DNA of 64,000 nucleotides. Source: Acidobacteriota bacterium (lineage in GTDB: Bacteria; Acidobacteriota; Vicinamibacteria; Vicinamibacterales; UBA8438). The translations under genes and the position numbers were made by a program. Where the stretch lies: the NCBI GenBank assembly GCA_009861545.1, contig VXME01000029.1, forward strand, positions 306-64,305. Reading direction: 5' to 3'. The notes under the pieces were generated by a model. The model saw only the letters and a list, made by a program, of their open reading frames with translations. It was not told where the DNA came from and made no database searches. Positions 25,086-47,635 of this stretch are shown in pieces. Numbering within the stretch: position 1 is the first letter of the stretch; every line of letters begins with the position of its first letter.

Positions 25086-25615
25086 GCGGAGTCAGCATCA
25101 CACTCCTCTGCGAGGACTTGCAGACGGATGCGTTCGTGCGCCGGTTCCTGAGGCACCGCAACTTCCGCGGCCGGGACATCCGTACGCTCCCCCTTCCCGG
25201 CGGTCGCCAGTCGGGCGAGCAATGGGTTCGCGAACGCTATCCGACGGAACTGCGAGCAATTCGCAGAAGGCAGGGCGTCTACCTGATAGTTGTAACGGAC
25301 GCGGACACCCATTCGACAGCGGTTCGACGTGCGCAGTTGGACGCGGCGTGCGACGAGAAGGAGACTCGGAGAAGAGACGACAATGAGCCGGTTCTCGTGA
25401 TTGTGCCGCGGAGGAACATCGAGACGTGGCTGGCGTTTCTCGGCGGAATGACGGTCGATGAGGACACGAAGTACCGGAAGCTGAAGCGCGAGGGAGACTG
25501 CGTCGCTCAGGCGGACGCCCTGTTCAGGATGTGTCACGAGGTGCAGAGGCTCGACGAAGGTGCTCCGCCTTCGCTACGAGAGGCATGCGAGGAGTACCCC
25601 AAGCTCCAGCGGTAG
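25082..25615 (+). CDS. TOPRIM-like/DUF4276-like partner protein, module B
   Basis: GTG at 25082 overlaps the ATPase stop (GTGA). Motifs ITLLCEDLQTDAFV, LIVVTDADTH and NIETWLAF are shared with the other partner proteins in this window. Confidence 0.6.
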   Translation: MSGVSITLLCEDLQTDAFVRRFLRHRNFRGRDIRTLPLPGGRQSGEQWVRERYPTELRAIRRRQGVYLIVVTDADTHSTAVRRAQLDAACDEKETRRRDDNEPVLVIVPRRNIETWLAFLGGMTVDEDTKYRKLKREGDCVAQADALFRMCHEVQRLDEGAPPSLREACEEYPKLQR

Positions 25616-31303: not shown

Positions 31304-31320
31304 GGCGTCCAGGAGAGTTG

Positions 31321-32478
31321 ATGAGCAGGGATCTGCGGTTCCGGCGTCTGCGGCTGCGCAACTGGAAGAACTTCCTGCGCGTGGACGTTGCCCTTCAGGA
31401 CCGCCTGTTTCTCGTGGGAGCGAACGCGTCGGGGAAGTCCAACTTCCTGGATGCCTTCCGGTTTCTCCGGGATATCGCCCTCTCCGGCAGCGGGTTCCGT
31501 GAAGCTGTTCTCCACCCTCGGCGCGGCGGAGTCAGCGGCATTCGTTGCCTGGCGGCTCGTCAGTACCCAGACGTGGAGATGACGGTTCACCTCGAAGAAG
31601 AGGGCGGCGGTGTCGCCTGGGAGTACGAGATTGCGTTTCACCAGGACAAGCAGCGGCGCCCGCGCATCCGAACGGAGCGCGTGAGTCGTGACGGAAAGGC
31701 GCTGGTCAAGAGACCGAACAAGCAGGATTCCGCAGATCCGGAGCGGCTCACCCAGACCTACCTGGAGCAGGTCAACGTCAATCAACGGTTTCGGGAACTG
31801 GTTGCGTTCTTCAGCTCCATCCGCTACCTGCACCTGGTGCCGCAGTTGGTCCGCGAGCCCGATCGGTCAGTCGGTCGCCCCAACGATCCTTTCGGCGGTG
31901 ATTTTCTGGAGCAGGTCGCCAAGACGCAGGAACGCACGCGGACTGCCCGGCTCGGTCGCATACAGCGTGCCCTGCGGGTGGCGGTGCCGCAACTCGAGCA
32001 GATCGATCTGTGGCGCGACGCGCGCGGCACGCCGCATCTGCGGGGCAAGTACCAGCACTGGCGAGCGCGGGGGGCGTGGCAGAGCGAGGAGCAGTTCTCC
32101 GACGGGACCCTCCGTCTGATGGGTTTGCTCTGGGCGGCGATGGACAAGGGAGGTCCGTTGCTGCTCGAAGAGCCGGAGCTGTCGCTCCATCCCGAAATCG
32201 TACGCGTGCTGCCGCAGATGCTGGCCCGCGTGCAGCGCCGAAGCGGCCGGCAGGTGTTCGTGAGCACGCACTCTCCAGACCTGCTGCGTGATGAGGGCAT
32301 CGGCCTCGACGAGGCGATGCTGCTGGTGACGAGTGCCGAAGGTACCGAAGTGGTACCGGCCAGCTCGAACCAGGAAGTGCGCAAGCTGCTGGAAGGGGGC
32401 CTGTCTCTTGCCGAAATCGCCATACCGAAGACGCGACCGAAGAACGCCGCCCAGCTCGCGCTGTTCGGAGACGCGTGA
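31321..32478 (+). CDS. ABC/SMC-type AAA ATPase (defence-associated, module C)
   Basis: Walker A VGANASGKSNFLDA, signature-like QFSDGTLRLMG, Walker B PLLLEEPELSLHP, H-loop VSTHSP. ATG lies 17 nt after the helicase stop. Confidence 0.8.
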   Translation: MSRDLRFRRLRLRNWKNFLRVDVALQDRLFLVGANASGKSNFLDAFRFLRDIALSGSGFREAVLHPRRGGVSGIRCLAARQYPDVEMTVHLEEEGGGVAWEYEIAFHQDKQRRPRIRTERVSRDGKALVKRPNKQDSADPERLTQTYLEQVNVNQRFRELVAFFSSIRYLHLVPQLVREPDRSVGRPNDPFGGDFLEQVAKTQERTRTARLGRIQRALRVAVPQLEQIDLWRDARGTPHLRGKYQHWRARGAWQSEEQFSDGTLRLMGLLWAAMDKGGPLLLEEPELSLHPEIVRVLPQMLARVQRRSGRQVFVSTHSPDLLRDEGIGLDEAMLLVTSAEGTEVVPASSNQEVRKLLEGGLSLAEIAIPKTRPKNAAQLALFGDA

Positions 32479-33086
32479 CGGTGTCGGCCGCGGTGACCGT
32501 CTCTGCGGCGGTTGAGGGAAGCCTCGACGAAGCGGTCGTTGACCGGCTCATCCGTCACGTCGGAGGGCATCCCGGCACGGTCTACGGCAAGAACGGCAAG
32601 CCGTTTCTCAGAGACCGGATCCGCGGCTACAACAACGCCGCGCATCACGCTCCGTGGGTCGTGCTCGTCGACCTCGACACGGAAGGAGAATGCGCACCGT
32701 CAGTACGTGACGCGTGGTTGCGGCAGCCCGCTCCGCGGATGTGCTTTCGAGTCGTCGTACGAGCGATCGAGGCGTGGCTCATGGCGGACGCGGAGCGGCT
32801 GGCGGCCTTCATCGGGGTCGCGCGGAGCAGGGTGACCGCGGACCCCGAGGGGTTGGACCATCCCAAACAGACCATGGTCAACCTGGCGCGTCTGTCGCGT
32901 CGCCGCGATGTTCGCCGGGACATGGTCCCGCGCCAGGGGAGCGGCCGGACCGAGGGATCGGCCTACGCGTCGCGGCTGATCGAGTACGCTACCGACCGCT
33001 GGCGGCCGGACGTGGCCGTCCTACGTGCGGACAGCCTGCGGCGCGCTGTCGCGTGTCTGCAACGGCTGAGTAGCGAGGACGCCTGA
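32475..33086 (+). CDS. DUF4276-like TOPRIM-like partner protein, module C
   Basis: GTG at 32475 overlaps the ATPase stop (GTGA). Motifs AAVEGSLDEAVV, VVLVDLDTE and AIEAWLMAD. Confidence 0.6.
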   Translation: MTVSAAVTVSAAVEGSLDEAVVDRLIRHVGGHPGTVYGKNGKPFLRDRIRGYNNAAHHAPWVVLVDLDTEGECAPSVRDAWLRQPAPRMCFRVVVRAIEAWLMADAERLAAFIGVARSRVTADPEGLDHPKQTMVNLARLSRRRDVRRDMVPRQGSGRTEGSAYASRLIEYATDRWRPDVAVLRADSLRRAVACLQRLSSEDA

Positions 33087-33100
33087 CACGAGAGGGTGCG

Positions 33101-35206
33101 ATGCACGAGGTGAAGTCGATCCAGGACCTGCTGAATCAGATCAGCCGCGACGAGATCCTGCTGCCCGAGTTCCAGCGCGGCTACGTCTGGAACCGCGATC
33201 AGGTGCGCGGGCTGATGCAGTCGCTCTACCGCAAGCATCCGACTGGCCATCTGCTGATCTGGCGCACGTACAAGCCGTCGCTGGTTCGCGGCGGCGAGGC
33301 GGCGCGCGACGGGCATTCGTTGTTGTTGCTCGACGGACAACAGCGCCTGACGACGCTCTACGTGCTGTTCAAGGGCGAGGCGCCGCGGTTCTACGAGGGT
33401 GAGTCGCTGTTCTTCGATCTGCACTTCAACATGCAGACCGAGGAGTTCCGCTTCTGGCAGAAGTCGCGCATGGAGAACAACCCGGCGTGGATCGGCGTCC
33501 ACGAGTTCCTGCAGGAGGGACTGACCGCTCTGCTCGAACGGTTGGAACAGATCGACGAGGAGCGGCGCAGAGTCATCCAGCAGAACTTAGCTCGGCTGGG
33601 TCGCTTGAATAGCGTCCGCGACTATACCTACACCGTCGATCAGGTGTCGGGCGACCACTACAGCGTCGAGCAGGTTGTCGACATCTTCAACCGGGTCAAC
33701 AGCAGAGGGACGCCTCTCACGAGGGCCGACCTCGCCCTGGCGTACGTTTGCAGCCTTTGGCCGGAGGCCCGGGCAGAGTTGCGCACTTTCAGCGGCAAGA
33801 TGGCGGAGCGCGGCTTCGCTGTCGACCTGAATTTCCTCGTGCGCTGTCTGGCGGCCGCCGCGACCGGCTCGGTGCTGTTGGAAGGGTCCTTTCTGAAGAC
33901 TCCTGCGCCGACGTTGCAGGACGCCTGGGAGAAGATGCAACCGGCGTTCGAGCATTTGGTGAGTGTCCTGCGCCAGGAGGCGTTCATCGGTGGTCTCGAC
34001 GACCTGCCGACCAATTTCGTGCTGATTCCAGCCACCATCTACCTGGCGCGCCAGGGCGGCCAGTTTCCGAGCGACGCGATCCGGCGGCGCTTCCTCCGCT
34101 GGATCTTCCTCGCCGGGCTATGGGCCCGTTATTCGGGTTCGACCGATACCAAGCTCCAGCAGGACGTGGCGCTGGTGTCTGGGCGCGACCTGGACCCGAC
34201 GCACGAGTTGGAAGCGGCGATTCTCCGTGAGCGCGGGCGAGTCACCCTGCAGGAAGGGGACCTGGAGCGCGCCCGCATCGACTCATCGGTCGCGCGCCTG
34301 AGCCGGATCGTGGCGCGGCATCGAGACGCTCGGGACTGGTTCACGGGCTTGCGCATCTACGACTCGGTGACCGGCAAGAACCTGGGCGAAGAGCGACACC
34401 ACATCTTCCCCAGACGGGTGCTCGAAAAGGCCGGATTCGACGATACGACACGGATCAACGCCGTGGCCAACCGGGCCATTCTCGGGCAGCGGGCCCCGAA
34501 GGAGTACCAGGGGATGTCGCCCGCAGAGTATCTCCCGGAGGTCGACGAGCATCAGCCAAGCGCCTTGCGAGCGCAGTCGGTGCCGATGGACCGCGCACTC
34601 TGGCAGCCCGAGCGCTTCCTCGATTTCCTGGCGGCCCGCCGGCGTCTGCTGGCCGAGGCGATGAACGAGTTCATCGCCGGGTGGCTCCCGGAGAAGGAGG
34701 CGGACCCCGAGCAACACGTGCGCGCGCTGATCGCCGTCGGCGAAAGTGAGACGCTGGAGTTCAAGTCGAGCCTGCGCTGGGACCATCGTGAGGAGCGGGT
34801 CAACAAGGCGCTCGAAGGGGTGGTGGTCAAGACGCTCGCCGGATTCCTGAACGCGGCGGGCGGCACGCTCCTCATCGGCGTCGACGACGGCGGTGCACTC
34901 GTCGGACTCGCGGCGGACTATGCAACGCTCAATAAGCAGGATCGCGACGGGTTCGAACTCCACCTGCAGAACGTCCTCGCCCGCGATCTCGGCGAGGCTG
35001 CATCATCGTCGTTCTTGACCGTGAACTTCCACGAGATCGACGGGCAGGATATCTGCCAGGTTACGGTGGAGCCGAGCGACCATGCGATCTACGTGGAGTA
35101 CAAGAACGAAGCAATCCTCTATCTGCGCGTCGGCAATCTGACCCGGCCGCTTCCCGTCAAAGAGGCCGTCCAGTACGTCGGGCGCCACTGGGGGAAGACG
35201 GCGTGA
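33101..35206 (+). CDS. DUF262 (ParB-like nuclease/NTPase) - DUF1524-like His-Me finger - AlbA_2 (Schlafen-like) fusion; GmrSD-like type IV restriction candidate
   Basis: N-terminal LPEFQRGYVW...LLLDGQQRLTTL (DUF262). Mid-region FNRVNSRGTPLTRADL. ERHHIFPRRVL...NAVANRAIL (HNH/His-Me, DUF1524-type). C-terminal ESETLEFKSSLRWD...GFLNAAGGTLLIGVDDGG (AlbA_2-type). Confidence 0.8.
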   Translation: MHEVKSIQDLLNQISRDEILLPEFQRGYVWNRDQVRGLMQSLYRKHPTGHLLIWRTYKPSLVRGGEAARDGHSLLLLDGQQRLTTLYVLFKGEAPRFYEGESLFFDLHFNMQTEEFRFWQKSRMENNPAWIGVHEFLQEGLTALLERLEQIDEERRRVIQQNLARLGRLNSVRDYTYTVDQVSGDHYSVEQVVDIFNRVNSRGTPLTRADLALAYVCSLWPEARAELRTFSGKMAERGFAVDLNFLVRCLAAAATGSVLLEGSFLKTPAPTLQDAWEKMQPAFEHLVSVLRQEAFIGGLDDLPTNFVLIPATIYLARQGGQFPSDAIRRRFLRWIFLAGLWARYSGSTDTKLQQDVALVSGRDLDPTHELEAAILRERGRVTLQEGDLERARIDSSVARLSRIVARHRDARDWFTGLRIYDSVTGKNLGEERHHIFPRRVLEKAGFDDTTRINAVANRAILGQRAPKEYQGMSPAEYLPEVDEHQPSALRAQSVPMDRALWQPERFLDFLAARRRLLAEAMNEFIAGWLPEKEADPEQHVRALIAVGESETLEFKSSLRWDHREERVNKALEGVVVKTLAGFLNAAGGTLLIGVDDGGALVGLAADYATLNKQDRDGFELHLQNVLARDLGEAASSSFLTVNFHEIDGQDICQVTVEPSDHAIYVEYKNEAILYLRVGNLTRPLPVKEAVQYVGRHWGKTA

Positions 35207-38200
35207 TCCCGCGCGAGTGCAAGCGCCTCGCGGAGGTGGACTTCCCGATCTCCGTGGTGTCGAAGCACGCGGCGCGGGAGAAGTCCATCCGGCACGGGCA
35301 TCCCTCGACGCTGCACTTGTGGTGGGCGCGCCGACCACTCGCGTCGAGCCGGGCCGTGCTATTGGCCCTGTTGTTGCCGGACCCGTGTGATTCCCGTTGC
35401 CCGGAGGAGTTCAAGTGGAAGGCGAGGGAGATTCTGAGCGCTGTGCGGCAGCCGCCCGCGAACGACGTGGAGCTGCGGAGGGCGCTTCTGTGGTTCATCG
35501 GAACGTTCGCCAACTGGGACATGGCGGCGCATCCGACCTACCTGCAAGTGGGGCGCAACCTTGTGCGGACGGCGCACGGGGAGGAGGCCCCGTTGGTGGT
35601 GGATCCGTTCGCGGGCGGCGGGTCGATTCCGCTGGAGGCGCTCCGGCTCGGCTGCGAGGCGTTCGCGAGCGACCTGAACCCCGTGGCGTGTCTGATCCTC
35701 AAGGTCATGCTGGAGGACATCCCGCGCCACGGGCCGAAGCTGGCCGATGAGTTGCGTCGTGTCGGTGGCGAGATCAAGGCCGCGGCGGAAAAGGAACTGG
35801 CCGACCTTTATCCGGCGGACCCGGACGGTGCGACACCGATAGCCTATCTTTGGGCGCGGACGGTGCGGTGCGAGGCGCCGAATTGCGGAGCCGAGATCCC
35901 CTTGATGCGGTCGTTCTGGTTGTGCAAGAAGGGCCGGCGCAAGCGGGCGTTGCGACCCCACGTCGTGCGCGCTGAGGACGAGTTGCCGCGGGTCGAGTTC
36001 GAGATCTTCGAGCCGCGTGCGGACAAGGATGTGGGCGCGGGCACCGTGGCGCGTGCGAAGGCCACCTGTGTGTGTTGCGGCGCGGTGAAGCCGCCGGAGC
36101 GCGTTCGGGCGCAACTCGCGGCACGACGGGGCGGAGCGGACGTCATCTTAGACGAGCAGGGTCGCCGCACGGGCGGCGCGTTTCTGGTTGCCGTGGTCAC
36201 GCTGAAACAGGACGAAACGGGACGCCAGTACCGACTGCCGACCGAGCGGGACTACGAGGCAGTAGGCAAGGCGCAGTCACGAGTGGCCGGGGTCCTCGAC
36301 GAGTGGGAACGCAACAGGCGCGGTCTTTGCCCGGTTCCTGATGAACCGCTTCCCTCCATAGGCACGCTCGGCTTTCGCGTTCAGCGCTACGGCATGCTCC
36401 GATGGGGGGATCTGTTCACGGCGCGACAGAAGATGGCACTGTTCCTTCATGCCCGTTTGTGCGACTCCATTCCCGATGACGAGCGCCTAAAGCGGTGTAT
36501 CGGACTGTCGCTAAGCGGCGTTGCAGACAGAAACGTTTCGCTGGCCACGTGGCGACCCCAAGCGGATCAAGAGAAAGTCGAACACTTGTTCACAAGACAT
36601 GCCCTTCCTATGGCATGGGACTTCGGCGAGGCCGTTCCGCTGAGTGATTCCACCGGTAGCTTCGGTGACAGACTGGGCGTCCTCGTCAGGACAGTTTCAG
36701 CGATGGCGGAGAACGGTCAAGCAGAGTATGCCGCAACCTCGACTCAGGCCGCCGACGCCACCAACCACCCTCTCCCCGACGAAACCGCCGGGGTCTGGTT
36801 TACCGATCCGCCCTACTACGACGCTATTCCTTACTCCGATCTCTCGGACTTCTTCCTCGTCTGGCTCCGGCGCGCCCTGCCCGACCAGCCGTTGCTGCGC
36901 GATCCGTTTGATGCCGGCAACCCGCTGTCGCCGAAGACAGCCGAGGCAGTGCAGGACGAAACTAAGGAAGTCCACGGAAGACCGAAGGACCGCATGTGGT
37001 TCGAGGAGACGATGGCCCGCGTGTTCGCGGAGGGCCGCCGCTTGCTTCGCGAAGACGGCGTAGGCTCCATCGTCTTCGCGCACAAGACCACCGAGGGCTG
37101 GGAGGCGCTTCTCTCCGGCATGATTCGAGGTGGCTGGACCATCACCGGATCGTGGCCCATAGCCACGGAGATGGGCTCAAGGCTGCGCGCGCGCGACTCC
37201 GCTGCCCTCGCCACAAGCATCCACTTGATCTGTCGACCGCGTCCAGAAGACGCGAGGACTGGTGACTGGGCGGAAGTTCTGCGCGAGCTGCCCCGGCGAG
37301 TCGGGGAATGGATGGAGCGTTTGCAGGACGAGGGTGTTCGAGGTGCGGACCTCGTATTCGCCTGTATCGGACCGGCACTGGAGATTTTCAGCCGCTATTC
37401 ACGAGTCGAGACCGCGGATGGAAGTGAGGTGACGCTGCCGGAGTACCTGGAAAAGGTCTGGGAGGTCGTCGGCCGCACGGCGCTAGAGAACGTCCTCGGC
37501 GCAGCGGAAGCGAAGGCCCGCAACGGCCTTGCCGGCGCGCTTGAAGAGGACGCGAGACTGACGGCCCTCTTCCTCTGGACGCTCCAGGCGACCACCGACG
37601 AAGGGACCCAAGACTCCGCTGATGACGACGGTGCGCCGGGCGACGCCGAGGACGAATCAGAACACGGCGGGTCCGCCGACAAGGCGAAGGGTTTCTCTCT
37701 GGTCTTCGACGTCGTGCGACGCTTCGCCCAGCCGCTGGGCATCGATCTCCCGAAGTGGGAGAAACGCACCATCGAGACGAAGAAGGGTGTGGTTCGCCTG
37801 CTGCCTGTGGCTGAGCGGGCGAAGCAGCTTTTCGGCGAGCGCGGGGCGCAGGACGTCGCGGCGTGGCTGGAACAGGAGGAGGCAACCGGAACCGACGCGC
37901 TACAGGGCGTGCTGTTTCCGGACCGACAGGAGAGAATCGGGTCCGCCGTCAGAGAGCGGCGACCGCGGTACGGCGATGCCGACAACGTGTCGGACGAACG
38001 TACCGGCACGACGACGCTCGACCGGGTCCACACGGGGATGTTGCTCCAAGCCGGCGGGCGCACCAACGCGTTGCGGGCGCTTGTACAGGCGGAGCAGGAG
38101 CGCGGCCCCGACTTCCTGCGCTTGTCGAACGCCCTTTCCGCGCTGTATCCGCGTGGCAGCGAGGAGAAGCGCCTGCTCGACGCGATGCTCCTGGCGGTTC

Positions 38201-38208
38201 CGAAATAG
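35203..38208 (+). CDS. DUF1156 domain DNA methyltransferase with Zn ribbon (DPPY motif IV)
   Basis: N-terminal hallmark EVDFPISVVSKHAAREKSIRHGHPSTLHLWWARRPLASSRA. SAM-binding VVDPFAGGGSIPLEA. Cys pairs CEAPNCG...CVCCG. Catalytic FTDPPYYD. GTG at 35203 overlaps the upstream stop (GTGA). Confidence 0.85.
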   Translation: MIPRECKRLAEVDFPISVVSKHAAREKSIRHGHPSTLHLWWARRPLASSRAVLLALLLPDPCDSRCPEEFKWKAREILSAVRQPPANDVELRRALLWFIGTFANWDMAAHPTYLQVGRNLVRTAHGEEAPLVVDPFAGGGSIPLEALRLGCEAFASDLNPVACLILKVMLEDIPRHGPKLADELRRVGGEIKAAAEKELADLYPADPDGATPIAYLWARTVRCEAPNCGAEIPLMRSFWLCKKGRRKRALRPHVVRAEDELPRVEFEIFEPRADKDVGAGTVARAKATCVCCGAVKPPERVRAQLAARRGGADVILDEQGRRTGGAFLVAVVTLKQDETGRQYRLPTERDYEAVGKAQSRVAGVLDEWERNRRGLCPVPDEPLPSIGTLGFRVQRYGMLRWGDLFTARQKMALFLHARLCDSIPDDERLKRCIGLSLSGVADRNVSLATWRPQADQEKVEHLFTRHALPMAWDFGEAVPLSDSTGSFGDRLGVLVRTVSAMAENGQAEYAATSTQAADATNHPLPDETAGVWFTDPPYYDAIPYSDLSDFFLVWLRRALPDQPLLRDPFDAGNPLSPKTAEAVQDETKEVHGRPKDRMWFEETMARVFAEGRRLLREDGVGSIVFAHKTTEGWEALLSGMIRGGWTITGSWPIATEMGSRLRARDSAALATSIHLICRPRPEDARTGDWAEVLRELPRRVGEWMERLQDEGVRGADLVFACIGPALEIFSRYSRVETADGSEVTLPEYLEKVWEVVGRTALENVLGAAEAKARNGLAGALEEDARLTALFLWTLQATTDEGTQDSADDDGAPGDAEDESEHGGSADKAKGFSLVFDVVRRFAQPLGIDLPKWEKRTIETKKGVVRLLPVAERAKQLFGERGAQDVAAWLEQEEATGTDALQGVLFPDRQERIGSAVRERRPRYGDADNVSDERTGTTTLDRVHTGMLLQAGGRTNALRALVQAEQERGPDFLRLSNALSALYPRGSEEKRLLDAMLLAVPK

Positions 38209-38234
38209 ACGCCACTGTGACTCGAGGTAATGCC

Positions 38235-39599
38235 ATGGAACAGATTCGGTTGAAGAACTTCCGTTGCTTTCGGGAGGCCCAGGCCGCACGGCTCGCCCCA
38301 CTTACCCTACTCGTAGGTGAGAACAGCACGGGCAAGACGTCGTTCATGGCTCTTATCCGGGCGCTATGGGACGTTGCGCATCGGCGTGCCGTTCCTGGCT
38401 TCAAGGAACCTCCTTACGACCTTGGCAGCTTCGACGAGATGGCCCATTATCGCAAGGGGAAAACCGGCCGGGCCGTGAGTTTCGAGGCGGGGTTTGATGT
38501 GACTCCCCTTGCGAGTTCCGGACAGGATCGAGAAAAAGACGCCGCCGGCCGGCTACATCACTTCGATGTGACGTTTTCGAGAAGAGGGACCATTCCGATT
38601 CCGTCCAAGTGGCGGCTTGCTTGCGAGGATGTATGGATCGAGGAGCGTCTCAACAAGGACTCGTCCCGGTGGATTCACTTCGGAACAGCGAACGGCGAAT
38701 GGCGCCGGAAGGTGCCGGCTGACGTCGAGGCGGGCATTCCTGCCGATTTTCAGATCGTGACATCGTTGTCATGGTACCTGACAACAGCGCCTCATGGAAA
38801 TACCGACATCCAGCCGTTGGCTGACTCTCCATCGATCTCCGAACAGGACCGAGGACGAATCAATCGGCTCGTTCTTGGCTCTGGCCTCCACGGTTTTTTT
38901 CTTACGGAGCAACGGCCCTTCGCTAGCGCGCCTGTTCGCTCCAAGCCGCGCCGGACGTATGATCCCTCGCGGCCTTCGAGGGAGCCTGAAGGAGAAAACG
39001 TTCCAATGTATCTTTCCACGGCGTTCTTCGAGGACAAGAAGTCGTGGGCGGCACTAAAGAACGCGCTTGAGGAGTTTGGACACGATGCGGGGCTGTTCGA
39101 CGAGATCTCGGTCAGGCCCTTGGGAAAGAGAGGGAGCGAACCATTTCAGATGCACGTACGGAAATTCGGAAGACGAGCCAAGGGGCCGATGCGCAACCTG
39201 ATCGACGTCGGCTACGGCGTCAGTCAGGTACTGCCAGTTGTTACCGAGCTGTTCCGGGACAACGAAACACCCATATTCCTCCTGCAGCAGCCAGAGGTGC
39301 ATCTTCATCCTAGCGCCCAGGCCGCCCTCGGAAGCCTCTTCTGCAGGATCGCCGAAGAGCACCGGCAGGTGGTGGTCGAGACGCATAGCGATCACCTGCT
39401 CGACCGGGTGCGCATGGACGTGCGTGATGGTAGGCCAAGGTTGAAGCCCGAGGATGTGTCGATCCTCTTCTTCGAGCGTAGCGATCTGGATGTCAGGATC
39501 CACTCGCTCCGTCTAGATCGGCAAGGTAACATTCTGGACGCGCCGCCGAGTTATCGGCGTTTCTTCATGAACGAGACGCGACGGTCACTGGGGCTCTGA
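38235..39599 (+). CDS. ABC-type AAA ATPase (DUF3696-like C-terminus), module D
   Basis: Walker A VGENSTGKTSFMAL, Walker B IFLLQQPEVHLHP, H-loop VVVETHSDHLLDRV. N-terminal IRLKNFRCF. Visibly less GC-rich than its flanks. Confidence 0.8.
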   Translation: MEQIRLKNFRCFREAQAARLAPLTLLVGENSTGKTSFMALIRALWDVAHRRAVPGFKEPPYDLGSFDEMAHYRKGKTGRAVSFEAGFDVTPLASSGQDREKDAAGRLHHFDVTFSRRGTIPIPSKWRLACEDVWIEERLNKDSSRWIHFGTANGEWRRKVPADVEAGIPADFQIVTSLSWYLTTAPHGNTDIQPLADSPSISEQDRGRINRLVLGSGLHGFFLTEQRPFASAPVRSKPRRTYDPSRPSREPEGENVPMYLSTAFFEDKKSWAALKNALEEFGHDAGLFDEISVRPLGKRGSEPFQMHVRKFGRRAKGPMRNLIDVGYGVSQVLPVVTELFRDNETPIFLLQQPEVHLHPSAQAALGSLFCRIAEEHRQVVVETHSDHLLDRVRMDVRDGRPRLKPEDVSILFFERSDLDVRIHSLRLDRQGNILDAPPSYRRFFMNETRRSLGL

Positions 39600-39601
39600 C
39601 G

Positions 39602-40069
39602 ATGTGCGCCATTCTGGACAACAGCGTCGTGCACGAGGTGTTTGGAGACAGGCGGTCGCCAGCGGGCGAGGCGTTCTTCAGGTGGATCAGTGTCGGGGGT
39701 GGGCGTCTGATCGGCGGCGGCAGATTGCTCAGAGAGCTTGCACGGAACGAGAACTTCTGGTTCTGGTGGCGAGAGGCAGTGCTCGCAGGACTGGCGACAC
39801 GCTTGGGCGACGGCACGGTGGAGGAGGAGACGACTCGATTGGTCGAGCGGGAGGCATGCCAATCGAACGATGAACATGTCGTCGCTCTGGCCGTGGTCGG
39901 CGGAGCTCGGTTACTGTACTCGAACGACAAGAAGCTGCAGCGTGACTTCAAGAACAGGCATCTGGTCAATCATCCGCCTGGAAGGGTGTATTCCACGCGT
40001 CGTAGCGGCGCCTTCACGCGAAAGAAGAGGGAGCTCCTTGCAGGGAGTTCTTGCAGGATAGCCCCATGA
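39602..40069 (+). CDS. PIN-like nuclease domain protein (putative), module D partner
   Basis: ATG lies 2 nt after the ATPase stop. Acidic positions are arranged as in PIN folds (AILDNSVV...; SNDEHVVALA; LLYSNDKKLQRDF). Assignment is tentative. Confidence 0.45.
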   Translation: MCAILDNSVVHEVFGDRRSPAGEAFFRWISVGGGRLIGGGRLLRELARNENFWFWWREAVLAGLATRLGDGTVEEETTRLVEREACQSNDEHVVALAVVGGARLLYSNDKKLQRDFKNRHLVNHPPGRVYSTRRSGAFTRKKRELLAGSSCRIAP

Positions 40070-40085
40070 AGTCGCTGTCGAGTTA

Positions 40086-40766
40086 GATGCCCGTGCGGGG
40101 CCACGCGTTCGAGGCGTTCTCGTTTCCGGCCGGCGGTCTGCCGACGCTTCTGAATCAACCGGACGCGCGGTTCTTTCTGGAAGTCGACCTCTCCGTTGGG
40201 TAGGAGCGGTGCCGTGTCGCGTGGAACCGAGGATCGAGCTCGGGTCGGGACGGCTCAGCGGGGCTGACGAGTACCTCGCACTCGTAGGGCGTACGGGCAA
40301 TCCGAAGGGGATCCCGGCCATCGAACGCGTCGATTCCAAACTCCACGTGCGACGCAAGGGGAGGCCGGCGCATCCGCGACAGGAGCCGGTCGGCATGAAT
40401 CACGCAATCCTGTCGGATCGCAGTCTCGCCGGCGACGAATAACGCTGGCTGGAAGCCGTGCGCGACGAACTCGGCGACTGTTGCACGCATTTTCTCGGTT
40501 CAGGCCTGGAGATGCGCGCGTCACGGCCCCCGGCCGACGTTTTTTCGATGCGGTCTGCATGGAGAGAGCATCGGACCCTTCCTGTACAAGCTGCGGGCCG
40601 AGCGGGCCGACGAGCCGAAACGCTTCGCGGCCGCCTCCCGCACGCTCCGGACTATCGTCCCGAGCGTGGAATCGCTGGCCGTTCAACTCGACGAGCGCCG
40701 CGGCACGCTCGGACGGAGGACGACCTGTTCGAGAACCTGCTGCTGCGGGGTCTGATCGACGAGTGA
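40086..40766 (+). pseudogene. Truncated, frameshifted copy of the module-E ABC ATPase gene
   Basis: Nucleotide and peptide similarity to 42300..42925 plus 43320..43370 (VRGHAFEAFSFPAGGLP; IELGSGRLSGADEYLAL...PAHPRQEPVGMNHAILSDRSLAGDE; LFENLLLRGLIDE*). It lacks Walker A. It is interrupted by TAG/TAA stops and frame changes, and has an internal deletion of the Walker B/H-loop region. Confidence 0.85.
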
Positions 40767-40835
40767 TCCGACAGAGGTCGACCAGAAGACGGGCTGCCGC
40801 AGAACAGTGGCGACCAGAATACGACGTTATAGATA

Positions 40836-42055
40836 ATGGTCGGCATGCAGGCACAGGATCGCGTATACGATGCGCTGCTGGCCGACCACTTCGCGATCAA
40901 CCGGCAGATGGTCTTCGTCAGCGGGCCGCGGCAGGTCGGCAAGACCACCACGTGCCGGCGTCACGCGGACGCGTACTGCAACTGGGACAACCTCGACGAC
41001 CGGGGGGAGCTCGTTCTCGCGGGGCCGGCCCGGCTCGCGGCCCGCTTGGGCGCGACCCGGTTGTCCGCAACGAGGCCGTTGTTCCTCTTCGACGAGCTGC
41101 ACAAGTTTCCGCGCTGGAAGCCGTTCCTGAAGGGGCTGTACGATACGTACGTGGATCGGCTGCGCATCATCGTCACCGGGAGCAGCCGTCTGGACGTCTA
41201 CCGCCGCGGCGGCGACAGCCTGATGGGGCGGTACTTCGCGTATCGGATGCCATCTGTTCTCGGTTGCGGAGACGTTGTGCCGTGATCTTCCGGATCCGGA
41301 ACGGATCGTTCGTTCTCCTCGGTCGATCGATTCGACCGAGCTCGATGCGCTCTGGACGCACGGCGGCTACCCGGAACCGTTCCGCAAGCGGGCCGCCCGC
41401 TTCAGGCGGCGCGGCGGTCGTTGCGCCTCCGGCAACTGGTCCGGGTGGACGTCCGCGACCTGACGCGGGTGCAGCAGATCGACCAACAGGAGGTACTGGT
41501 TCGCTTGTTGTCGCACCGGTCGGGCCGCCAACTCGTGTACAGCACGCTCGCGCGGGAGACGCGGGTCGCGGTCGACACCGTCCGTCGCTGGGTCGCCGCT
41601 GTGCGACTTCCATCTCGGCTTCCTGGTCCGGCCCTGGTACCGCAACGTCTCGCGATCGCTGCGCAAGGAGCCGAAGCGGTTACCTGCGGGACTGGGCCGA
41701 CATCGAGGACGCCGGCGCTCGATCGGAGACGTTCGTCGCGTGTCATCTGCTCAAGGCGGTGGACGGCTGGAACGACATGGGGCTCGGCCGGTTCGAGCTG
41801 GGGTACCTGCGCGACAAGGACAGGCGGGAGGTGGCTTTCGTGGTCGCGCGCGACGGTGAGCCGTGGTTTCTCGCCAAGGTCAAGCACCGCGAAACTAGCC
41901 CGGGTCCGGCGCTCGCACACTTTCAGCGCTAGGTCGGGGCGCCGTTCGCGTTCCACGTCGTGGTAGATGCCGACTACTTGGACGCGGACTGCTTCGCCGC
42001 GCCCGGTCCGCCGCTCGTGGTCCCGGCTCGGACCCTGTTGTCGCAGCTCGTATGA
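40836..42055 (+). pseudogene. AAA_14/DUF4143-type ATPase gene, multiply frameshifted
   Basis: The N-terminus is intact (VFVSGPRQVGKTT, LFLFDELHKFPRWK, IIVTGSSRLDVYRRGGDSLMGRYF). The recognisable continuation jumps between frames (LWTHGGYPEPF; VDVRDLTRVQQI; FLVRPWYRNVSRSLRKEPK; YLRDWADIED...EVAFVV). An in-frame TAG at 41930 is followed by the conserved tail (AFHVV...VVPARTLLSQLV). Confidence 0.8.
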
Positions 42056-42128
42056 GAAGATCCGTGCGACGCTGAGCGAGTCCACGCAGCCGACGAGGAG
42101 TTGCATGGCATGCCAGAGGTAGCAGGCG

Positions 42129-43370
42129 ATGCTGAAGAAGCTGACGGTCCGCAACTTCAAGTCGCTCATGGACGTGAGCGTGGAGTTTCCGTCCCTGGCG
42201 GTGCTCTTCGGACCGAACGCCGCTGGAAAAAGCAACCTGCTGGATGCCATCGCAGCACTGTCCTGGATCGGCAACGTGCGCACGCTCTCCGACGTGTTGG
42301 ATCGGCCGCTGCCGGTACGGGGCCACGCCTTCGAGGCGTTCTCGTTCCCGGCAGGAGGTCTGCCGGCCCTGCTGAAGCAACAGACCGCCCGGTTCTCGCT
42401 GGAAGCCGATCTCGCGGTGGAGGCCGAGCTGTACAGGTATCGCGTCGAGCCGAGCATCGAGTTGCGGTCAGGTCGTCTCAGCGTGGCCGACGAATACCTC
42501 GCCCTCCTAGGGAAGAACCGCAATCCGAAGGGAACGCCGGCGATCGAGCGGGTCGAATCGAGTCTCCGCGTGCGGCGCAAGGGGAAGCCGGCGCACCCGC
42601 GCCAGGAGCCGCTCGGCATGAATCACGCGATCCTCTCCGACCGGAGTCTTGCGGGCGACGAGTACCGCTGGCTGGAAGCTGTTCGCCTGGAACTGGGCGA
42701 GTGGTGCACGCACTATCTCGATCCGGGCCTAGCGATGCGCGCCCCGCGGGCCCCGGCCGATGTCTTCGATGTCGGTGTTCACGGGGAATACATCGGACCC
42801 TTCCTGTACAAGTTGCGAGCCGAGGAGCCGAAGCGCTTCGAGGCAGTCTCCCGCACGCTGCGCTCCATCGTTCCCAGCGTCGAGTCGCTGGCCGTGTATC
42901 TGGACGAGCGCCGCGGCACGCTGGACATTCTGATTCGTCAGGGGGGCGTGGAGTACTCGACTCGCATCGTTTCCGAGGGCACCCTTCGCGTGCTCGCCTT
43001 GTGCGCCATCGCCGTGAATCCGTGGGGAGGCTCTCTGGTCGCGTTCGAAGAGCCGGAGAACGGCGTCCACCCGCGGCGGCTCGATCTCATTGCCCGCCTC
43101 CTGATCTCGTTGGCATCGGACGGGGGGCGTCAGGTCATCGTGACGACCCACTCGCCGCTGTTCTGCGACGCCGTGCTGAAGCACGCGTCCTCCCTGCAGG
43201 GAGACGTCGGTCTCTTCAACGTTCGTCGTGTCGGGCAGGCCACGAGCATCGACCCTTTCGACCCAACCGGGCCGTTGTTCAAGGACAGCGAAATCGCGGC
43301 AGCACTCACGAGCAATGCCGAGGACGGTCTGTTCGAGAACCTGCTGCTGCGAGGCCTGATCGATGAGTGA
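42129..43370 (+). CDS. ABC/SMC-type AAA ATPase (defence-associated, module E)
   Basis: Walker A FGPNAAGKSNLLDA, signature-like VSEGTLRVLAL, Walker B LVAFEEPENGVHP, H-loop VTTHSP. N-terminal LTVRNFKSL. Confidence 0.8.
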   Translation: MLKKLTVRNFKSLMDVSVEFPSLAVLFGPNAAGKSNLLDAIAALSWIGNVRTLSDVLDRPLPVRGHAFEAFSFPAGGLPALLKQQTARFSLEADLAVEAELYRYRVEPSIELRSGRLSVADEYLALLGKNRNPKGTPAIERVESSLRVRRKGKPAHPRQEPLGMNHAILSDRSLAGDEYRWLEAVRLELGEWCTHYLDPGLAMRAPRAPADVFDVGVHGEYIGPFLYKLRAEEPKRFEAVSRTLRSIVPSVESLAVYLDERRGTLDILIRQGGVEYSTRIVSEGTLRVLALCAIAVNPWGGSLVAFEEPENGVHPRRLDLIARLLISLASDGGRQVIVTTHSPLFCDAVLKHASSLQGDVGLFNVRRVGQATSIDPFDPTGPLFKDSEIAAALTSNAEDGLFENLLLRGLIDE

Positions 43371-43992
43371 TTCCCTCGCTGTGGATCTCTTCGTCGAGGA
43401 CCTCGCTCATGAGGTGTTCGTCGGGGCGCTGGTCGACCGGATCGCCCGAGAAGAAGATGTCGCGTTGAGCCTCCAGGCTCGGTCGGCGCGTGGCGGTCAC
43501 CCGCGCGCGTTGGAGGAGTTCGGGACGTATCAGGTGTTGGTCGAGAAGGGGGCGCTCACGAAGCGCACACCGGATCTGGTGGTCGTCGTCATCGACGGCA
43601 ACTGCGCCACGCCTCGTAAGAAGAGGGAGGAGATCCGGAGGGTGACGAGGCCGGCGCTTCTGGACCGGGTTGTCACGGGTTGCCCGAACCCGCACGTCGA
43701 GCGCTGGTTTCTGGCGGATCCTGATTCGTTCCACAACGTGGTCGGCTATCAGCCGGTGGTCGGTCCCGAGAAGTGCGAGCGGGAACACTACAAGCGGATT
43801 CTGGCGGACGCGGTTCGCCGCGGGCAGCAGCCGGCGACGCTCAGCGGGATCGAGTTCGCGGCTGAGCTGGTGGAGGCGATGAATCTCTACCGGGCCGGCA
43901 GAAGGGACTCGTCATTGAGAGCTTTCGTGGGCGATCTTCGTGGACGTTTCCGCGAGATTCGGCGTCGAGAAGGAGTGGGGGGCGCCCAATGA
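43363..43992 (+). CDS. DUF4276-like partner protein, module E (DxD replaced by IDGN)
   Basis: ATG at 43363 overlaps the ATPase 3' end by 8 nt. Motifs DLFVEDLAHEVFV, VVVVIDGNC and HVERWFLAD align with the partners of modules B and C. Confidence 0.6.
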   Translation: MSDSLAVDLFVEDLAHEVFVGALVDRIAREEDVALSLQARSARGGHPRALEEFGTYQVLVEKGALTKRTPDLVVVVIDGNCATPRKKREEIRRVTRPALLDRVVTGCPNPHVERWFLADPDSFHNVVGYQPVVGPEKCEREHYKRILADAVRRGQQPATLSGIEFAAELVEAMNLYRAGRRDSSLRAFVGDLRGRFREIRRREGVGGAQ

Positions 43993-44170
43993 GCCGGTTT
44001 GACGCCGCTCCGTTACCAGTCTGCGGATGGTCTTCGTCAGCCCGCCGCGTCAGCTCAGCAAGACCCATACGCGTCCACCGCGCGTTTGGGGAAGGGTCCG
44101 CGAGGTCCGCTCGTCCTTTCAATGGACGGAGGCTGAAATCGGGCTCACCAATCGTAGTACTTTGTAGCAC

Positions 44171-44386
44171 ATGGCGACCTTGACGATCCGCATCGACCAA
44201 AAGCTGGCCGCGGAACTGCGGGATATGGCGGCGCGAACCGGTACCGGCAAGAGCGCATTCGTGCGCGAAGCCGTGCGCCGGCAACTCGCGATCGCACGAC
44301 TCGAAGAGCTGCGGCGCCGCGTGGCGCCGTTCGCCGAGGCGCAGGGCTGGTTGACCGACGAGGATGTCTTCGACGAAGTTTCGTGA
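44171..44386 (+). CDS. Ribbon-helix-helix (CopG/Arc-type) antitoxin
   Basis: 71 aa. N-terminal beta-strand plus two helices (TLTIRIDQKLAAELRDMAARTGTGKSAFVREAVRRQL). Overlaps the PIN gene start (GTGA). Confidence 0.75.
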   Translation: MATLTIRIDQKLAAELRDMAARTGTGKSAFVREAVRRQLAIARLEELRRRVAPFAEAQGWLTDEDVFDEVS

Positions 44387-44838
44387 GGATCCTGCTCGAC
44401 ACCGACGTCCTGGTCGCCGCCTTCGCGACCCGCGGATTCTGCCTGGACATTCTGCAACTCGTGCTCGCCGAGCACCGGCTGGTCGTCGGCGAGACGATTG
44501 TCGAAGAACTCGAACGGATTCTCCGGGAGAAGCTCCGCCTGCCGGCCACGCGTGTCCGCGAGGTCGTCGGATTCGTTCGTGATCAGGCGGACATCGTGAC
44601 GCCGGTCGCGCCAGCGACATGGCCCGATACCGATCCGGCCGATCGATGGATAGCCGCGGCTGCGATCGTCGGGGCGGTGGACGTTCTTGTGACTGGCGAC
44701 AGGGATCTGCTCGATGCGCGGCCGGCGGCGGGTTTACGGATCGTGACGCCCAGAGGGTTGTGGGAACTGCTCCGTGCGGCGCGGCTTGGCGAGCCGGTCG
44801 AGGAGCGCGTGAGGAGACAGGCACGTAATGGCGCTTGA
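44383..44838 (+). CDS. PIN-domain toxin (type II TA)
   Basis: RILLDTDVLVAAF (first acidic residue), DRWIAAAAIVGAVDVLVTGDRDLL (C-terminal acidic pair). 151 aa. Confidence 0.8.
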   Translation: MRILLDTDVLVAAFATRGFCLDILQLVLAEHRLVVGETIVEELERILREKLRLPATRVREVVGFVRDQADIVTPVAPATWPDTDPADRWIAAAAIVGAVDVLVTGDRDLLDARPAAGLRIVTPRGLWELLRAARLGEPVEERVRRQARNGA

Positions 44839-47635
44839 TCCCTGGTACAAGGTCGCGCTTCCGCGCGAAGAGGTCCGCGAAGGCCGTTCGTTCAATCCGG
44901 ACGAGTTCGCCATCGCCCTCGAGCAGGTCGTCGGCGGCACGGCCCCGGCCGACTACCGCGATCCCGAGGCGTTCTTCGCCCGCACCTGCTTCACGCGCGC
45001 ATTGCGCGAGCACGCAGGAATGGTGCTGCGGCGTCTGGCGGGGAAGACGGCGAATACGTCGCCGGTGATGACGCTGGTGACGCAGTTCGGCGGGGGCAAG
45101 ACCCACACACTGACCGCGCTGTATCACCTCGTGACGGCAGGCCAGTCCATGGACGGCCTGGAAGGGGTCACGGATCTCCTGCACGACGCGGGGCTGTCCG
45201 CCGCTCCCGAGGCCCGGGTGGCGGTCTTCGTCGGCAACGCGTGGGATCCGCGGGAGGGACGAGAGGCGCCATGGATCGACGTCGCCCGTCAACTCGCCGG
45301 TGAGCGCGGTGTCGAGTTGCTCGGCGCGAGCGCAGCGACGACCCCACCGGGCACCGAGGCGCTCGGACGTGTGTTCGCCGCGGCGGGCGCGCCCGCGCTG
45401 GTGCTGTTCGACGAGGTGCTCAACTTCGTCAATCGCTACCGGCAGATGGCCGATCCGTTCCATGCCTTCATCCAGAACCTGACAGTCGCGATGACAGGGA
45501 CCACGCACGGGGCCGCGGTCATCAGCCTGCCGCGCAGCCAGGTCGAGATGTCCGATTTCGATATGGCGTGGCAAGACAAGATCACGAAGGTCGTCCGGCG
45601 CGTCGCCAAGGACCTGTTGGCGAACGACGAGACGGAGGTGAGCGAGGTCGTCCGGCGGCGGCTGTTCGACGCTATCGGCGAGGAGCGGTTCCGCAAGAAG
45701 GTGTCCAGGGTCTATGCCGACTGGTGCTTCGAGCGGCGCGAGCGTCTGCCGCCGCAGTGGACCCTGGTGGACAGCGCCGCCACCGAGGCGAAGGCGCGCG
45801 AGCATCTGCGGGTGCGCTTCGAGGCCTGTTATCCGTTCCATCCGGCCACGTTGTCGGTGTTCCAGCGCAAGTGGAGCGCGCTGCCGCAGTTCCAGCAGAC
45901 GCGCGGCACGCTGGCGATGCTGGCGCAGTGGATCTCCTGGGCGCACCGGGACGGCTTCACCAAAGCCCGCACGGAGCCATTGATCACCCTGGGATCTGCG
46001 CCTCTCGACATTTCCGACTTCGCCAGCGTCGTGCTCGGACAGCTCGGCGAATCGCGTTTGTCGACCGCCATCGACGCCGACATCGCTGGCGTACAGGCGC
46101 ACGCGCGGGCGCTGGATGCCGACAGCAAAGGCCCCGTCCGTGACATCCACCGCCGCGTGGGAACGACGATGCTGTTCGAGTCGTCGGGCGGCCAGGTCGA
46201 GCGGGTCGCGCATCTGCCGGAACTGCGCTTCGCGCTCGGGGAGCCGTCGATCGACACGACCTCGGTCGACACCGCGGCGATGGCGCTCGAGGAACGCTCC
46301 TACTTCCTGCGGCGGGTCGGAACGGACGGCTATCGGATCAGCTACCGGCCGACCATCAAGAAGGTGGTGAACGACCGGCGCGCGTCGCTGGACGAGGAAG
46401 GCGAGATTCAGCCGGCCATCCGCAAGCTGGTCAAGGACGATTTCGACCGGGGGGCGACCCTTCCGCGGGTCTGCTTCCCGGCCGACGCCGCGTCGATTCC
46501 GGACACGCCGAAGCTGACGCTCGTGGTGGCGGATCCCGATGTGGAGTGGACCGGCGCGGCGGGCGAAGACGTGCGCAAGCGGATCGCCCAGTGGACCCGA
46601 GCCCGCGGTGCCTCGCCCAGGCTGTATCCGGGCGCGCTGGTTTGGGCCGTCAAGAAGCCGGGCCGAGAACTGCGGGACAAGGTGGAGCAGTGGCTTGCCT
46701 GGAAGCGTGTCGCCAGCGAGATCTCGGCGGGCACCCTGGGAAGCGAGCTCGACAGCACCGAGCTCGCGGATATCCGCACCAAGGTGCGGGAAGCCGGTGA
46801 CGCGGCTCGTGAGGAGGTGTGGGGTGACTACCGCTTCGTGGTGCTCGCCGACGCCTCGGCGCCGGACGGACTGGCGAGTATCGACCTCGGCGCCGGGCAT
46901 TCCAGCAGCAGCGAGAGCTTATGCGGGCGGGTGATCTCCGCGCTCAAGTCGAGCGCGCTGCTCAACGAATCGGTCGGCGCCGCGTACCTGGAACGCAACT
47001 GGCCGCCGGCCTTGAAGGAGAGCGGGGCCTGGCCGCTGGTCAGCCTGCGCCAGAGTTTCCTCGACGGTTCGCTGACGCGCCTCGTCGATCCCGACGCCGT
47101 GCTGTGCCGGAAGATCGTGGAGTTCGTCGGCAAGGGCGACTTCGGGCTCGGCTCCGGAAGGGGAGCGGACGGCCGATTCGAGCGCGTGTCGTTTGGGGAG
47201 ACCGTCGCGCCCGAGGACGTCATGTTCGAGTCGGACGTGTACCTGCTGACCCGAGCCTTGGCCGAGCAGTTGAAGGCACCGACAGCACCCGACACCCAGA
47301 CGCCCGCGGACGGCGAGGACGTCTCGGATGATTCGGTCGGCGGTTCAACCGGTCCTGGGCCGGGGCCGGATGTTGTGGTCGATCCGCAGCCTCCGGAGCC
47401 GCCCGCGCCATCGGCGCAGAAGTCCTTTCGTATTCATGGAGACATCCCGCCGGAGATCTGGAACCGGCTGGGAACGAGGCTTCTGCCGAAGCTCCGCTCG
47501 GGCCAGGATCTGAAGGTGGGCGTCACGTTCGAGTTGACCGCGGACGGCGCTGGTGCCGATCCACTTCTGGCGGACCTGCGGCAGATTCTGGACGACCTGC
47601 AGCTCGGCGACAGCGTCCGGATCGATGTCGAGTGA
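44828..47635 (+). CDS. DUF499 domain ATPase (defence-associated)
   Basis: N-terminal hallmark LDPWYKVALPREEVREGRSFNPDEFAIALEQV...YRDPEAFFARTCFT and P-loop QFGGGKTHTLTALYHL. 935 aa. The ATG overlaps the PIN gene by 11 nt. Confidence 0.85.
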   Translation: MALDPWYKVALPREEVREGRSFNPDEFAIALEQVVGGTAPADYRDPEAFFARTCFTRALREHAGMVLRRLAGKTANTSPVMTLVTQFGGGKTHTLTALYHLVTAGQSMDGLEGVTDLLHDAGLSAAPEARVAVFVGNAWDPREGREAPWIDVARQLAGERGVELLGASAATTPPGTEALGRVFAAAGAPALVLFDEVLNFVNRYRQMADPFHAFIQNLTVAMTGTTHGAAVISLPRSQVEMSDFDMAWQDKITKVVRRVAKDLLANDETEVSEVVRRRLFDAIGEERFRKKVSRVYADWCFERRERLPPQWTLVDSAATEAKAREHLRVRFEACYPFHPATLSVFQRKWSALPQFQQTRGTLAMLAQWISWAHRDGFTKARTEPLITLGSAPLDISDFASVVLGQLGESRLSTAIDADIAGVQAHARALDADSKGPVRDIHRRVGTTMLFESSGGQVERVAHLPELRFALGEPSIDTTSVDTAAMALEERSYFLRRVGTDGYRISYRPTIKKVVNDRRASLDEEGEIQPAIRKLVKDDFDRGATLPRVCFPADAASIPDTPKLTLVVADPDVEWTGAAGEDVRKRIAQWTRARGASPRLYPGALVWAVKKPGRELRDKVEQWLAWKRVASEISAGTLGSELDSTELADIRTKVREAGDAAREEVWGDYRFVVLADASAPDGLASIDLGAGHSSSSESLCGRVISALKSSALLNESVGAAYLERNWPPALKESGAWPLVSLRQSFLDGSLTRLVDPDAVLCRKIVEFVGKGDFGLGSGRGADGRFERVSFGETVAPEDVMFESDVYLLTRALAEQLKAPTAPDTQTPADGEDVSDDSVGGSTGPGPGPDVVVDPQPPEPPAPSAQKSFRIHGDIPPEIWNRLGTRLLPKLRSGQDLKVGVTFELTADGAGADPLLADLRQILDDLQLGDSVRIDVE

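Follow-up and report, generated by a model that had tools for sequence, protein, structure and literature searches.

The DNA analysed here, referred to as the window, is a 64,000-nucleotide (nt) stretch of contig VXME01000029.1 from an Acidobacteria metagenome-assembled genome (MAG). The element under study is a pair of genes on its forward strand, encoding an ABC-type ATPase of 454 amino acids (aa) and a stand-alone PIN-domain protein of 155 aa (Table 1). The dinucleotide 'cg' alone separates the TGA of the ATPase gene from the ATG of the second open reading frame (ORF). Public gene calls on the same metagenomic contig (locus tag F4X11_04310) contain identical ORFs of 454 and 155 aa, in agreement with the original prediction, made from the letters of the window, that an ABC-type ATPase is followed 2 nt later by a 155-aa protein. 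On a second public contig, L082, the gene calls differ for the ATPase and for the gene upstream of it, HmaB; as the DNA of that contig is 99.99% identical, we set this difference aside as a gene-calling artefact.

The pair is inserted directly downstream of HmaB within an Hma system, between HmaB and HmaC, and the ATPase gene starts 26 nt past the HmaB stop codon. A promoter scan found no sigma-70-like promoter between HmaB and the ATPase gene, and a scan for promoters and terminators around the pair gave nothing convincing, the sole terminator-like hairpin lying inside the ATPase gene. The pair is probably co-transcribed with HmaB. Its G+C content (GC) is 0.592, compared with 0.679 in the whole window; across the 64 kb, 0.03% of equal-length stretches have a lower value, so that the pair is approximately the lowest-GC 1.8-kb stretch, as had also been noticed in the original prediction. 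GC at third codon positions (GC3) is 0.67–0.72 in the pair compared with 0.79–0.89 in the neighbouring genes. Low GC and low GC3 are both compatible with horizontal acquisition of the pair.

The two genes are strictly linked. We examined the neighbourhoods of the 80 closest of 406 genomic relatives. A full-length ATPase homologue (42–67% identity) ends directly before the PIN gene in 79 of these 80 loci, at an intergenic distance of −17 to +23 nt, and the sole locus that lacks an upstream ATPase meets a contig end 121 nt upstream. Pairwise distances between the ATPases and between the PIN proteins covary across 75 genomes (Mantel r 0.63, with 0.19 as the highest value among 999 permutations), which argues that ATPase and PIN have been inherited together for a long time and were not recently swapped. 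The immediate neighbours of the pair vary from locus to locus and include oxidoreductases, hydrolases and transporters, and sometimes methylases, helicases and other ATPases. Because upstream and downstream neighbours are this heterogeneous, there is no conserved third gene: neither an NsnA-type DUF262 gene nor a small antitoxin gene was found to be conserved among the genes flanking the 80 loci. The pair is an autonomous, mobile two-gene unit. This co-occurrence survey of homologues, which the original prediction had proposed as a check, bears out its claim that ATPase and PIN are genetically coupled; its view of them as a likely defence module is also right.

The smaller protein is rightly regarded as a candidate PIN-fold nuclease with an intact catalytic set. 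Its Pfam PIN match (E 0.009, 17.1 bits) does not pass the gathering cut-off of 23.6 bits, PF01850 is annotated on several of its homologues, and NCBIfam holds no usable family for either the ATPase or the PIN protein. An AlphaFold (AF2) model was generated from 32 sequences, with a mean predicted local distance difference test score (pLDDT) of 87.6 and a predicted template modelling score (pTM) of 0.85; it shows the three layers (alpha/beta/alpha) and the parallel sheet of a PIN fold. Compared with the PDB using Foldseek, another check suggested at the outset, this model finds VapC toxins as its best matches, led by 5x3t_B (E 7e-4, probability 1.0) and including VapC11 (6a7v) and VapC15 (4chg), with PAE0151 as a further match; over the top VapC matches, the probability is 0.94–1.0 and the TM score 0.5–0.6. 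Searched at the sequence level with the PIN profile, the PDB returned nothing relevant and no solved VapC, and the likeness to VapC was thus seen by fold comparison only. Against viral structures, Foldseek gave no significant match, the best being a 'PIN like domain' at E 0.06.

Conservation within the PIN family was counted in 81 relatives. Four acidic residues, D6, E45, D90 and D109, show the canonical PIN spacing and are invariant or nearly so (Table 1); the motifs quoted in the original prediction as spaced like those of PIN nucleases (LDNSVV, SNDEHVV and YSNDKKL) contain D6, D90 and D109. All 81 relatives also share C2, S88, H92 and C151, and 66 of them have Cys86. C2, H92 and C151 may form a metal or redox site tying the C-terminal tail to the core. 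The family is large, with 378 clusters at 90% identity, 406 matches among GTDB species genomes and 1,918 clusters at 50% identity (E ≤ 0.001).

The larger protein matches the Pfam families AAA_15 (1.6e-21) and AAA_21 (1.5e-18). Its best matches among the PADLOC models (v2.0.0) are NsnB (2e-44, over the full length), PDC-M55A (3e-31) and the HEC-03 ATPase model PDLC04148 (3.4e-30). An AlphaFold model built from 31 sequences (pLDDT 74) has the heads of SMC, cohesin and Rad50 as its best fold matches, followed by PtuA, GajA and OLD, and on this basis we assign the protein to the ABC-type ATPases. Motif conservation was counted in 75 homologues. Walker A, the glutamate E354 and the His switch are kept although the Walker B dyad is Gln-Gln: Q351 and Q352 (codons at 39285–39290) stand in place of the expected Asp/Glu-Glu, in the consensus LLQQPExHLHP, and the QQPE of the ATPase aligns with the EEPE of Thermus OLD (6p74) and of GajA. 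The protein also has a GxG signature-like motif. This conservation pattern suggests that the clade may consist of ATP-binding switches with weak or no hydrolysis.

The sequence ETHSDHLLDR had been read in the original prediction as the tail typical of DUF3696-like proteins. The motif is present, but it is the His-switch end of the ABC core, aligning with 'ysTHSp' of OLD and 'lsTHSpell' of GajA; the DUF3696-like part lies further on, at residues 403–437, and scores below the family threshold. The C-terminal tail consists of two strands and a conserved terminal helix (residues 438–452; pLDDT 80–93 in the ATPase model), with Y440, R441, F443, F444, E447, S451 and L452 invariant. By analogy with models of the Menshen system, discussed below, this tail may dock the PIN protein.

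A named relative with this architecture exists. Payne et al. 2024 (bioRxiv 10.1101/2024.01.29.577857) searched for Hma-embedded genes and defined HEC-03 (Hma-embedded candidate 03), composed of an ABC ATPase and a PIN protein 'similar to VapC family ribonucleases'. In that study, the HEC-03 of Pseudomonas cichorii reduced plaque formation by orders of magnitude for at least two phages, an effect that depended on both genes, and the system worked when cloned alone. The supplement of the study lists a 'DUF3696 domain-containing protein' at 322707–324092, followed by a 157-aa hypothetical protein. The ATPase of the window is homologous to the P. cichorii HEC-03 ATPase (BLASTP, 24% identity, E 6e-23, collinear over residues 1–393). 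Both systems have the same gene order, with a DUF3696-type ABC ATPase of about 455 aa tightly coupled to a single-domain VapC-like PIN of about 155 aa, and both are embedded in Hma. The canonical catalytic Glu is lost from both ATPases (EQPE in HEC-03, QQPE here), and an invariant Cys close to residue 150, within the C-terminal tail, is common to the two PIN families. Thus, the original prediction, which did not recognise the pair as a named system, needs correcting: a DUF3696-type ABC ATPase and a VapC-like PIN in Hma make up the HEC-03 architecture, and the pair is not a new kind of system, having in HEC-03 a named, experimentally supported relative.

The two systems nevertheless differ in several respects. 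The pair has also lost the equivalent of the Walker B Asp (Q351), and its ATPase scores higher on the NsnB model than on the HEC-03 model. The N-terminal motif of the PIN is MCAILD in the pair and VVDTNVAIAANG in HEC-03, and the Cys/His pattern is different, the HEC-03 PIN having invariant C23, C27 and C150 and a near-invariant H153. Their hosts differ as well, being mostly MAGs of Acidobacteriota, Chloroflexota, Latescibacterota and Binatia for the pair as opposed to Pseudomonas and Burkholderia for HEC-03. The pair is best described as a divergent HEC-03-like module, the PIN of which belongs to a separate sequence family.

We consider it likely that the two genes form a self-contained anti-phage module of the same kind as HEC-03, acting by abortive infection. 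A defence function would follow from the experiments on HEC-03, a distant relative. Mechanistically, the ABC ATPase would oligomerise and keep the small PIN nuclease inactive, probably by clamping it between the DUF3696-like C-terminal tails. On sensing a cue derived from the phage, the ATPase would change its nucleotide state, and the PIN would then be released or activated. The freed PIN would cut nucleic acid, most likely RNA, as VapC-type PINs in general do, and the growth of the infected cell would stop, giving the presumed abortive outcome.

Several observations weigh against this interpretation. The HEC-03 PIN model PDLC04147 has no match at E ≤ 1 to the PIN of the window or to four members of its family, compared with 1e-67 to 1e-86 for PINs of the HEC-03 family. 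An hhalign comparison of the two PIN families is collinear, with catalytic positions matched, at a probability of 7%, a value at which we rejected filing the protein as a HEC-03 PIN. The similarity between the PINs is therefore weak, and the transfer of function rests mainly on the ATPase and the architecture. Phage defence has been demonstrated for the P. cichorii representative of HEC-03 only. In the ATPase, Gln-Gln replaces the Walker B Asp-Glu throughout the 75 homologues examined; hydrolysis may therefore be weak or absent, which makes the 'ATPase' step of the mechanism uncertain. The Pfam DUF3696 match to residues 403–437 (E 0.0015, 19.1 bits) lies below the 22-bit cut-off, and the precomputed annotations of close ATPase homologues include no DUF3696. 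Finally, about 80% of the loci have no recognised defence gene as an immediate neighbour, and the linkage survey covered the 80 closest of the 406 genomic relatives.

The resemblance of the PIN to VapC raises the alternative that the pair is an addiction module of the toxin–antitoxin type, in which the ATPase serves as the protein antitoxin of a VapC-type PIN toxin and the main role of the pair is to stabilise the genomic island or the Hma cluster and not to sense phages. The PIN is indeed VapC-like in fold (nearest to 5x3t, 6a7v and 4chg), with its active site intact, and shares with VapC the four conserved acidic residues, the small size and the position as downstream gene of a coupled two-gene operon, a translationally coupled order, neutraliser first, that resembles type II toxin–antitoxin operons. 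Pfam annotates AAA_21 as putative AbiEii, a type IV toxin–antitoxin family; many of the loci lie amid housekeeping genes, and the same island contains a canonical toxin–antitoxin pair of ribbon–helix–helix (RHH) and PIN_3 proteins. However, VapBC systems encode a small DNA-binding antitoxin (RHH, AbrB, helix–turn–helix or PHD) upstream of the toxin, whereas in 79 of 80 loci this place is taken by a 454-aa ABC ATPase, and an ATPase that has kept Walker A, a signature-like GxG and the His switch far exceeds the needs of an antitoxin. The PIN has no sequence-level match to any solved VapC, the homologous HEC-03 pair defends against phage, and searches of plasmids, phages and IMG/VR contigs, which commonly carry addiction modules, found no members of the family. 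Toxin–antitoxin and abortive-infection roles can, moreover, coexist, and sequence alone does not separate them. On balance, we judge an addiction module unlikely and favour the anti-phage module.

The ATPase model with the best match, NsnB, belongs to the Menshen system (Millman et al. 2022). A later analysis of Menshen (PMC12065111) describes NsnB as an ABC ATPase that carries a DUF3696 tail and combines a GxG signature with an altered Walker B. In 23 of 24 cases, AlphaFold 3 models put the inactive N-terminal PIN-like domain of NsnC between two DUF3696 tails of NsnB; all major families of NsnC PIN-like domains lack catalytic residues, and NsnC bears a C-terminal nuclease (PMC12065111). The ATPase of the pair is of the NsnB type, sharing the GxG signature, the altered Walker B and a tail that is DUF3696-like below threshold, and its downstream partner begins, like NsnC, with a PIN-fold domain. 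It could therefore be asked whether the pair is a reduced or split Menshen, with the ATPase as NsnB, the PIN as a minimal NsnC and the DUF262 protein encoded upstream of HmaB as the NsnA sensor. The full-length NsnB match and the shared ATPase features fit such an arrangement, and the DUF262 protein does match NsnA weakly (1.1e-9), as well as PDC-M55C (2.4e-26). Yet its best match is of the HEC-05/BrxU type (1.1e-43), and HmaB separates its gene from the pair, such that the gene directly upstream of the ATPase is HmaB and not an NsnA (ParB-DUF262 plus ParBDB). When the families of upstream genes are ranked by frequency, DUF1156 comes first (8 of 73) and DUF262/GmrSD_N does not figure among the top 25; relatives of the GmrSD-like protein of the window occur in only 3 of the 80 loci. 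The partner itself is a single 155-aa PIN domain with a full D-E-D-D set, whereas NsnC combines an inactive PIN-like domain with a C-terminal nuclease, and PADLOC gave no NsnC match to the PIN of the window. A split Menshen is thus highly improbable.

The DUF262 protein combines GmrSD_N (DUF262) with a C-terminal Schlafen/AlbA_2 part. Its gene lies between an HEC-01-like pair and HmaB, and its stop codon overlaps the HmaB start.

The position of the pair could also mean that it is an accessory subunit pair of Hma itself, for example a nuclease arm needed to restrict unmethylated DNA. It begins 26 nt past HmaB with no detected promoter, and the order HmaB–pair–HmaC recurs in at least 10 of the 80 loci. 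However, a HmaB homologue adjoins the pair in 9–14 of the 80 loci only, roughly 80% of the loci are without Hma genes and have unrelated neighbours, and Hma systems have been defined without the pair. HEC-03 is functional when cloned alone, and the distinct GC and GC3 of the pair suggest a separate acquisition. We therefore regard a role as an Hma subunit as very unlikely, and retain an anti-phage module that stands on its own.

OLD-type ABC ATPases acting as sensors or regulators of small nuclease effectors are also found in PARIS AriAB, Gabija GajA, Septu PtuAB, OLD and HEC-01/AbiL. The pair is similar to these in that PtuA, GajA and OLD are among the structural neighbours of its ATPase, and two HEC-01-like examples are present in the window itself. 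Its effector is a PIN, not a TOPRIM or HNH nuclease, and searches with Pfam and PADLOC gave no TOPRIM or DUF4276 match in the pair. Between its ATPase and the TOPRIM-associated ATPases of the window, the P-loop and the Walker-B/H-loop motifs are common and there is no full-length alignment; the inserts and the tail of the HEC-01-like ATPases are unrelated to those of the pair, with similarity at the level of motifs only. The clades also differ, that of the pair being of the NsnB/HEC-03 type. A recent effector swap between the ATPase modules of the window was rejected because the ATPases share motifs only. The proposal in the original prediction that the effector had been swapped on a common sensor/ATPase chassis is thus retained in one part: the chassis is common at the level of the ABC ATPase superfamily only, and the different clade, the motif-only similarity and the covariation of ATPase and PIN distances (Mantel r 0.63) speak against the swap.

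Carriers of the pair are nearly all uncultured MAGs, spread over many phyla and many orders, and include Vicinamibacterales, Binatia, Dehalococcoidia, Latescibacterota, Bryobacterales, Longimicrobiales, Rhodothermales and Entotheonella, along with Spirochaetia and Alpha- and Gammaproteobacteria. Since HEC-03 PINs come mainly from Pseudomonas and Burkholderia, the taxonomic ranges of the two PIN families seem to differ. A tblastn search with the PIN found no relatives on plasmids or phages and a scan of IMG/VR viral contigs found none, and the idea of a phage- or plasmid-borne module was dropped for this reason.

The value of the finding lies mostly in annotation and evolutionary context. No PADLOC model matches the 155-aa PIN family, and the ATPase alone resembles an orphan Menshen NsnB. 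As PADLOC v2.0.0 misses the PIN half, a large family (406 GTDB matches and 1,918 clusters at 50% identity) is invisible as a defence system. The locus provides an independent example, from a distant phylum, of defence modules nested in Hma, and supports guilt-by-embedding. Through the common pairing of ATPase tail and PIN, the pair bridges HEC-03, in which the PIN is active, and Menshen, in which an inactive PIN serves as an adaptor. The invariant Gln-Gln of its Walker B offers a handle on whether ATP binding without hydrolysis controls effector release, a question left open by Payne et al. A more far-reaching proposal, which we put forward tentatively and hold to be rather unlikely, is that the pair represents a separate and widespread ATPase–PIN immune clade missed by defence finders. 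The Gln-Gln ABC protein would then be an ATP-binding switch and not a hydrolase, caging an active PIN by means of its DUF3696-like tails; this active-PIN state would be ancestral to the Menshen arrangement of NsnB with an inactive PIN adaptor, and the nuclease would be controlled by a metal or redox site peculiar to the family and made up of C2, H92 and C151.

Table 1. Features of the ATPase–PIN pair and of the surrounding Hma island (window coordinates)
Feature	Position	Strand	Details
ABC-type ATPase, NsnB/HEC-03 clade	38235..39599	+	454 aa; ATG start, TGA stop
Stand-alone PIN-domain protein	39602..40069	+	155 aa
Ribosome-binding site GAGGT	38224..38228	+	6 nt 5' of the ATPase ATG, 16 nt past the HmaB stop; read from the sequence
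Walker A, G28-ENST-G33-K34-T35-S36	38316..38342	+	G28, G33 and K34 in 75/75 homologues; T35 in 74/75
Atypical Walker B, L-L-Q351-Q352-P-E354	39279..39296	+	Q351 and Q352 in 75/75 homologues; E354 in 74/75
ETHSDHLLDR, His-switch (H-loop) region of the ABC core	39378..39407	+	Residues 382-391; H384 in 75/75 homologues
DUF3696-like C-terminal tail	39441..39596	+	Two strands and a conserved terminal helix, residues 438-452
PIN catalytic residues	D6 39617-39619; E45 39734-39736; D90 39869-39871; D109 39926-39928	+	D6, D90 and D109 in 81/81 relatives; E45 in 80/81
PIN Cys/His residues	C2 39605-39607; H92 39875-39877; C151 40052-40054	+	C2 directly after the initiator Met
Host Hma system with embedded modules	27869..47635	+	About 20 kb; PADLOC and public gene calls
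HmaA	27869-31303		PADLOC 3e-168
HEC-01-like pair (ATPase and TOPRIM)	about 31319-33086		
GmrSD/HEC-05-like protein	33101-35206		PADLOC HEC-05 1.1e-43
HmaB (DUF1156 methylase)	35203-38208		PADLOC 6.7e-112
ATPase remnant and AAA_14	40088-42000		
Second HEC-01-like pair	42129-43992		
RHH and PIN_3 toxin–antitoxin pair	44171-44838		
HmaC (DUF499)	44828-47635		PADLOC 6.3e-100

Other genes of the island include the two HEC-01-like pairs, matched by PADLOC at 1.2e-153 (HEC-01A) and 6e-65 (HEC-01B). Directly 3' of the PIN gene, positions 40088–40767 correspond to part of the HEC-01A-like AAA_21 ATPase gene at 42129–43370, in a degraded and frameshifted copy that has an internal deletion and a nucleotide identity of 79% over 629 nt and of 90% over another 52 nt; this remnant looks like a scar of duplication or recombination in the island. 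Between the remnant and the intact copy lies an AAA_14 ATPase ORF (40836–41285, the region extending up to about 42000; 149 aa, Pfam 4.7e-21), which seems to be truncated or frameshifted and is perhaps an insertion in decay.

The canonical VapBC-like pair of the island is composed of a 71-aa RHH_1 antitoxin (44171–44386) and a 151-aa PIN_3 toxin (44383–44838), the genes of which overlap by 4 nt. The toxin gene, encoding a second and unrelated PIN in the Hma island, stands immediately before HmaC and overlaps its start codon. Upstream of the Hma system, the region 23973–25615 encodes a 370-aa HEC-01A-like AAA ATPase (PADLOC HEC-01A 2.3e-18, mad3 6e-18), overlapped by a 213-aa ORF for which PADLOC gave no match, and lies in a second low-GC patch (0.597).

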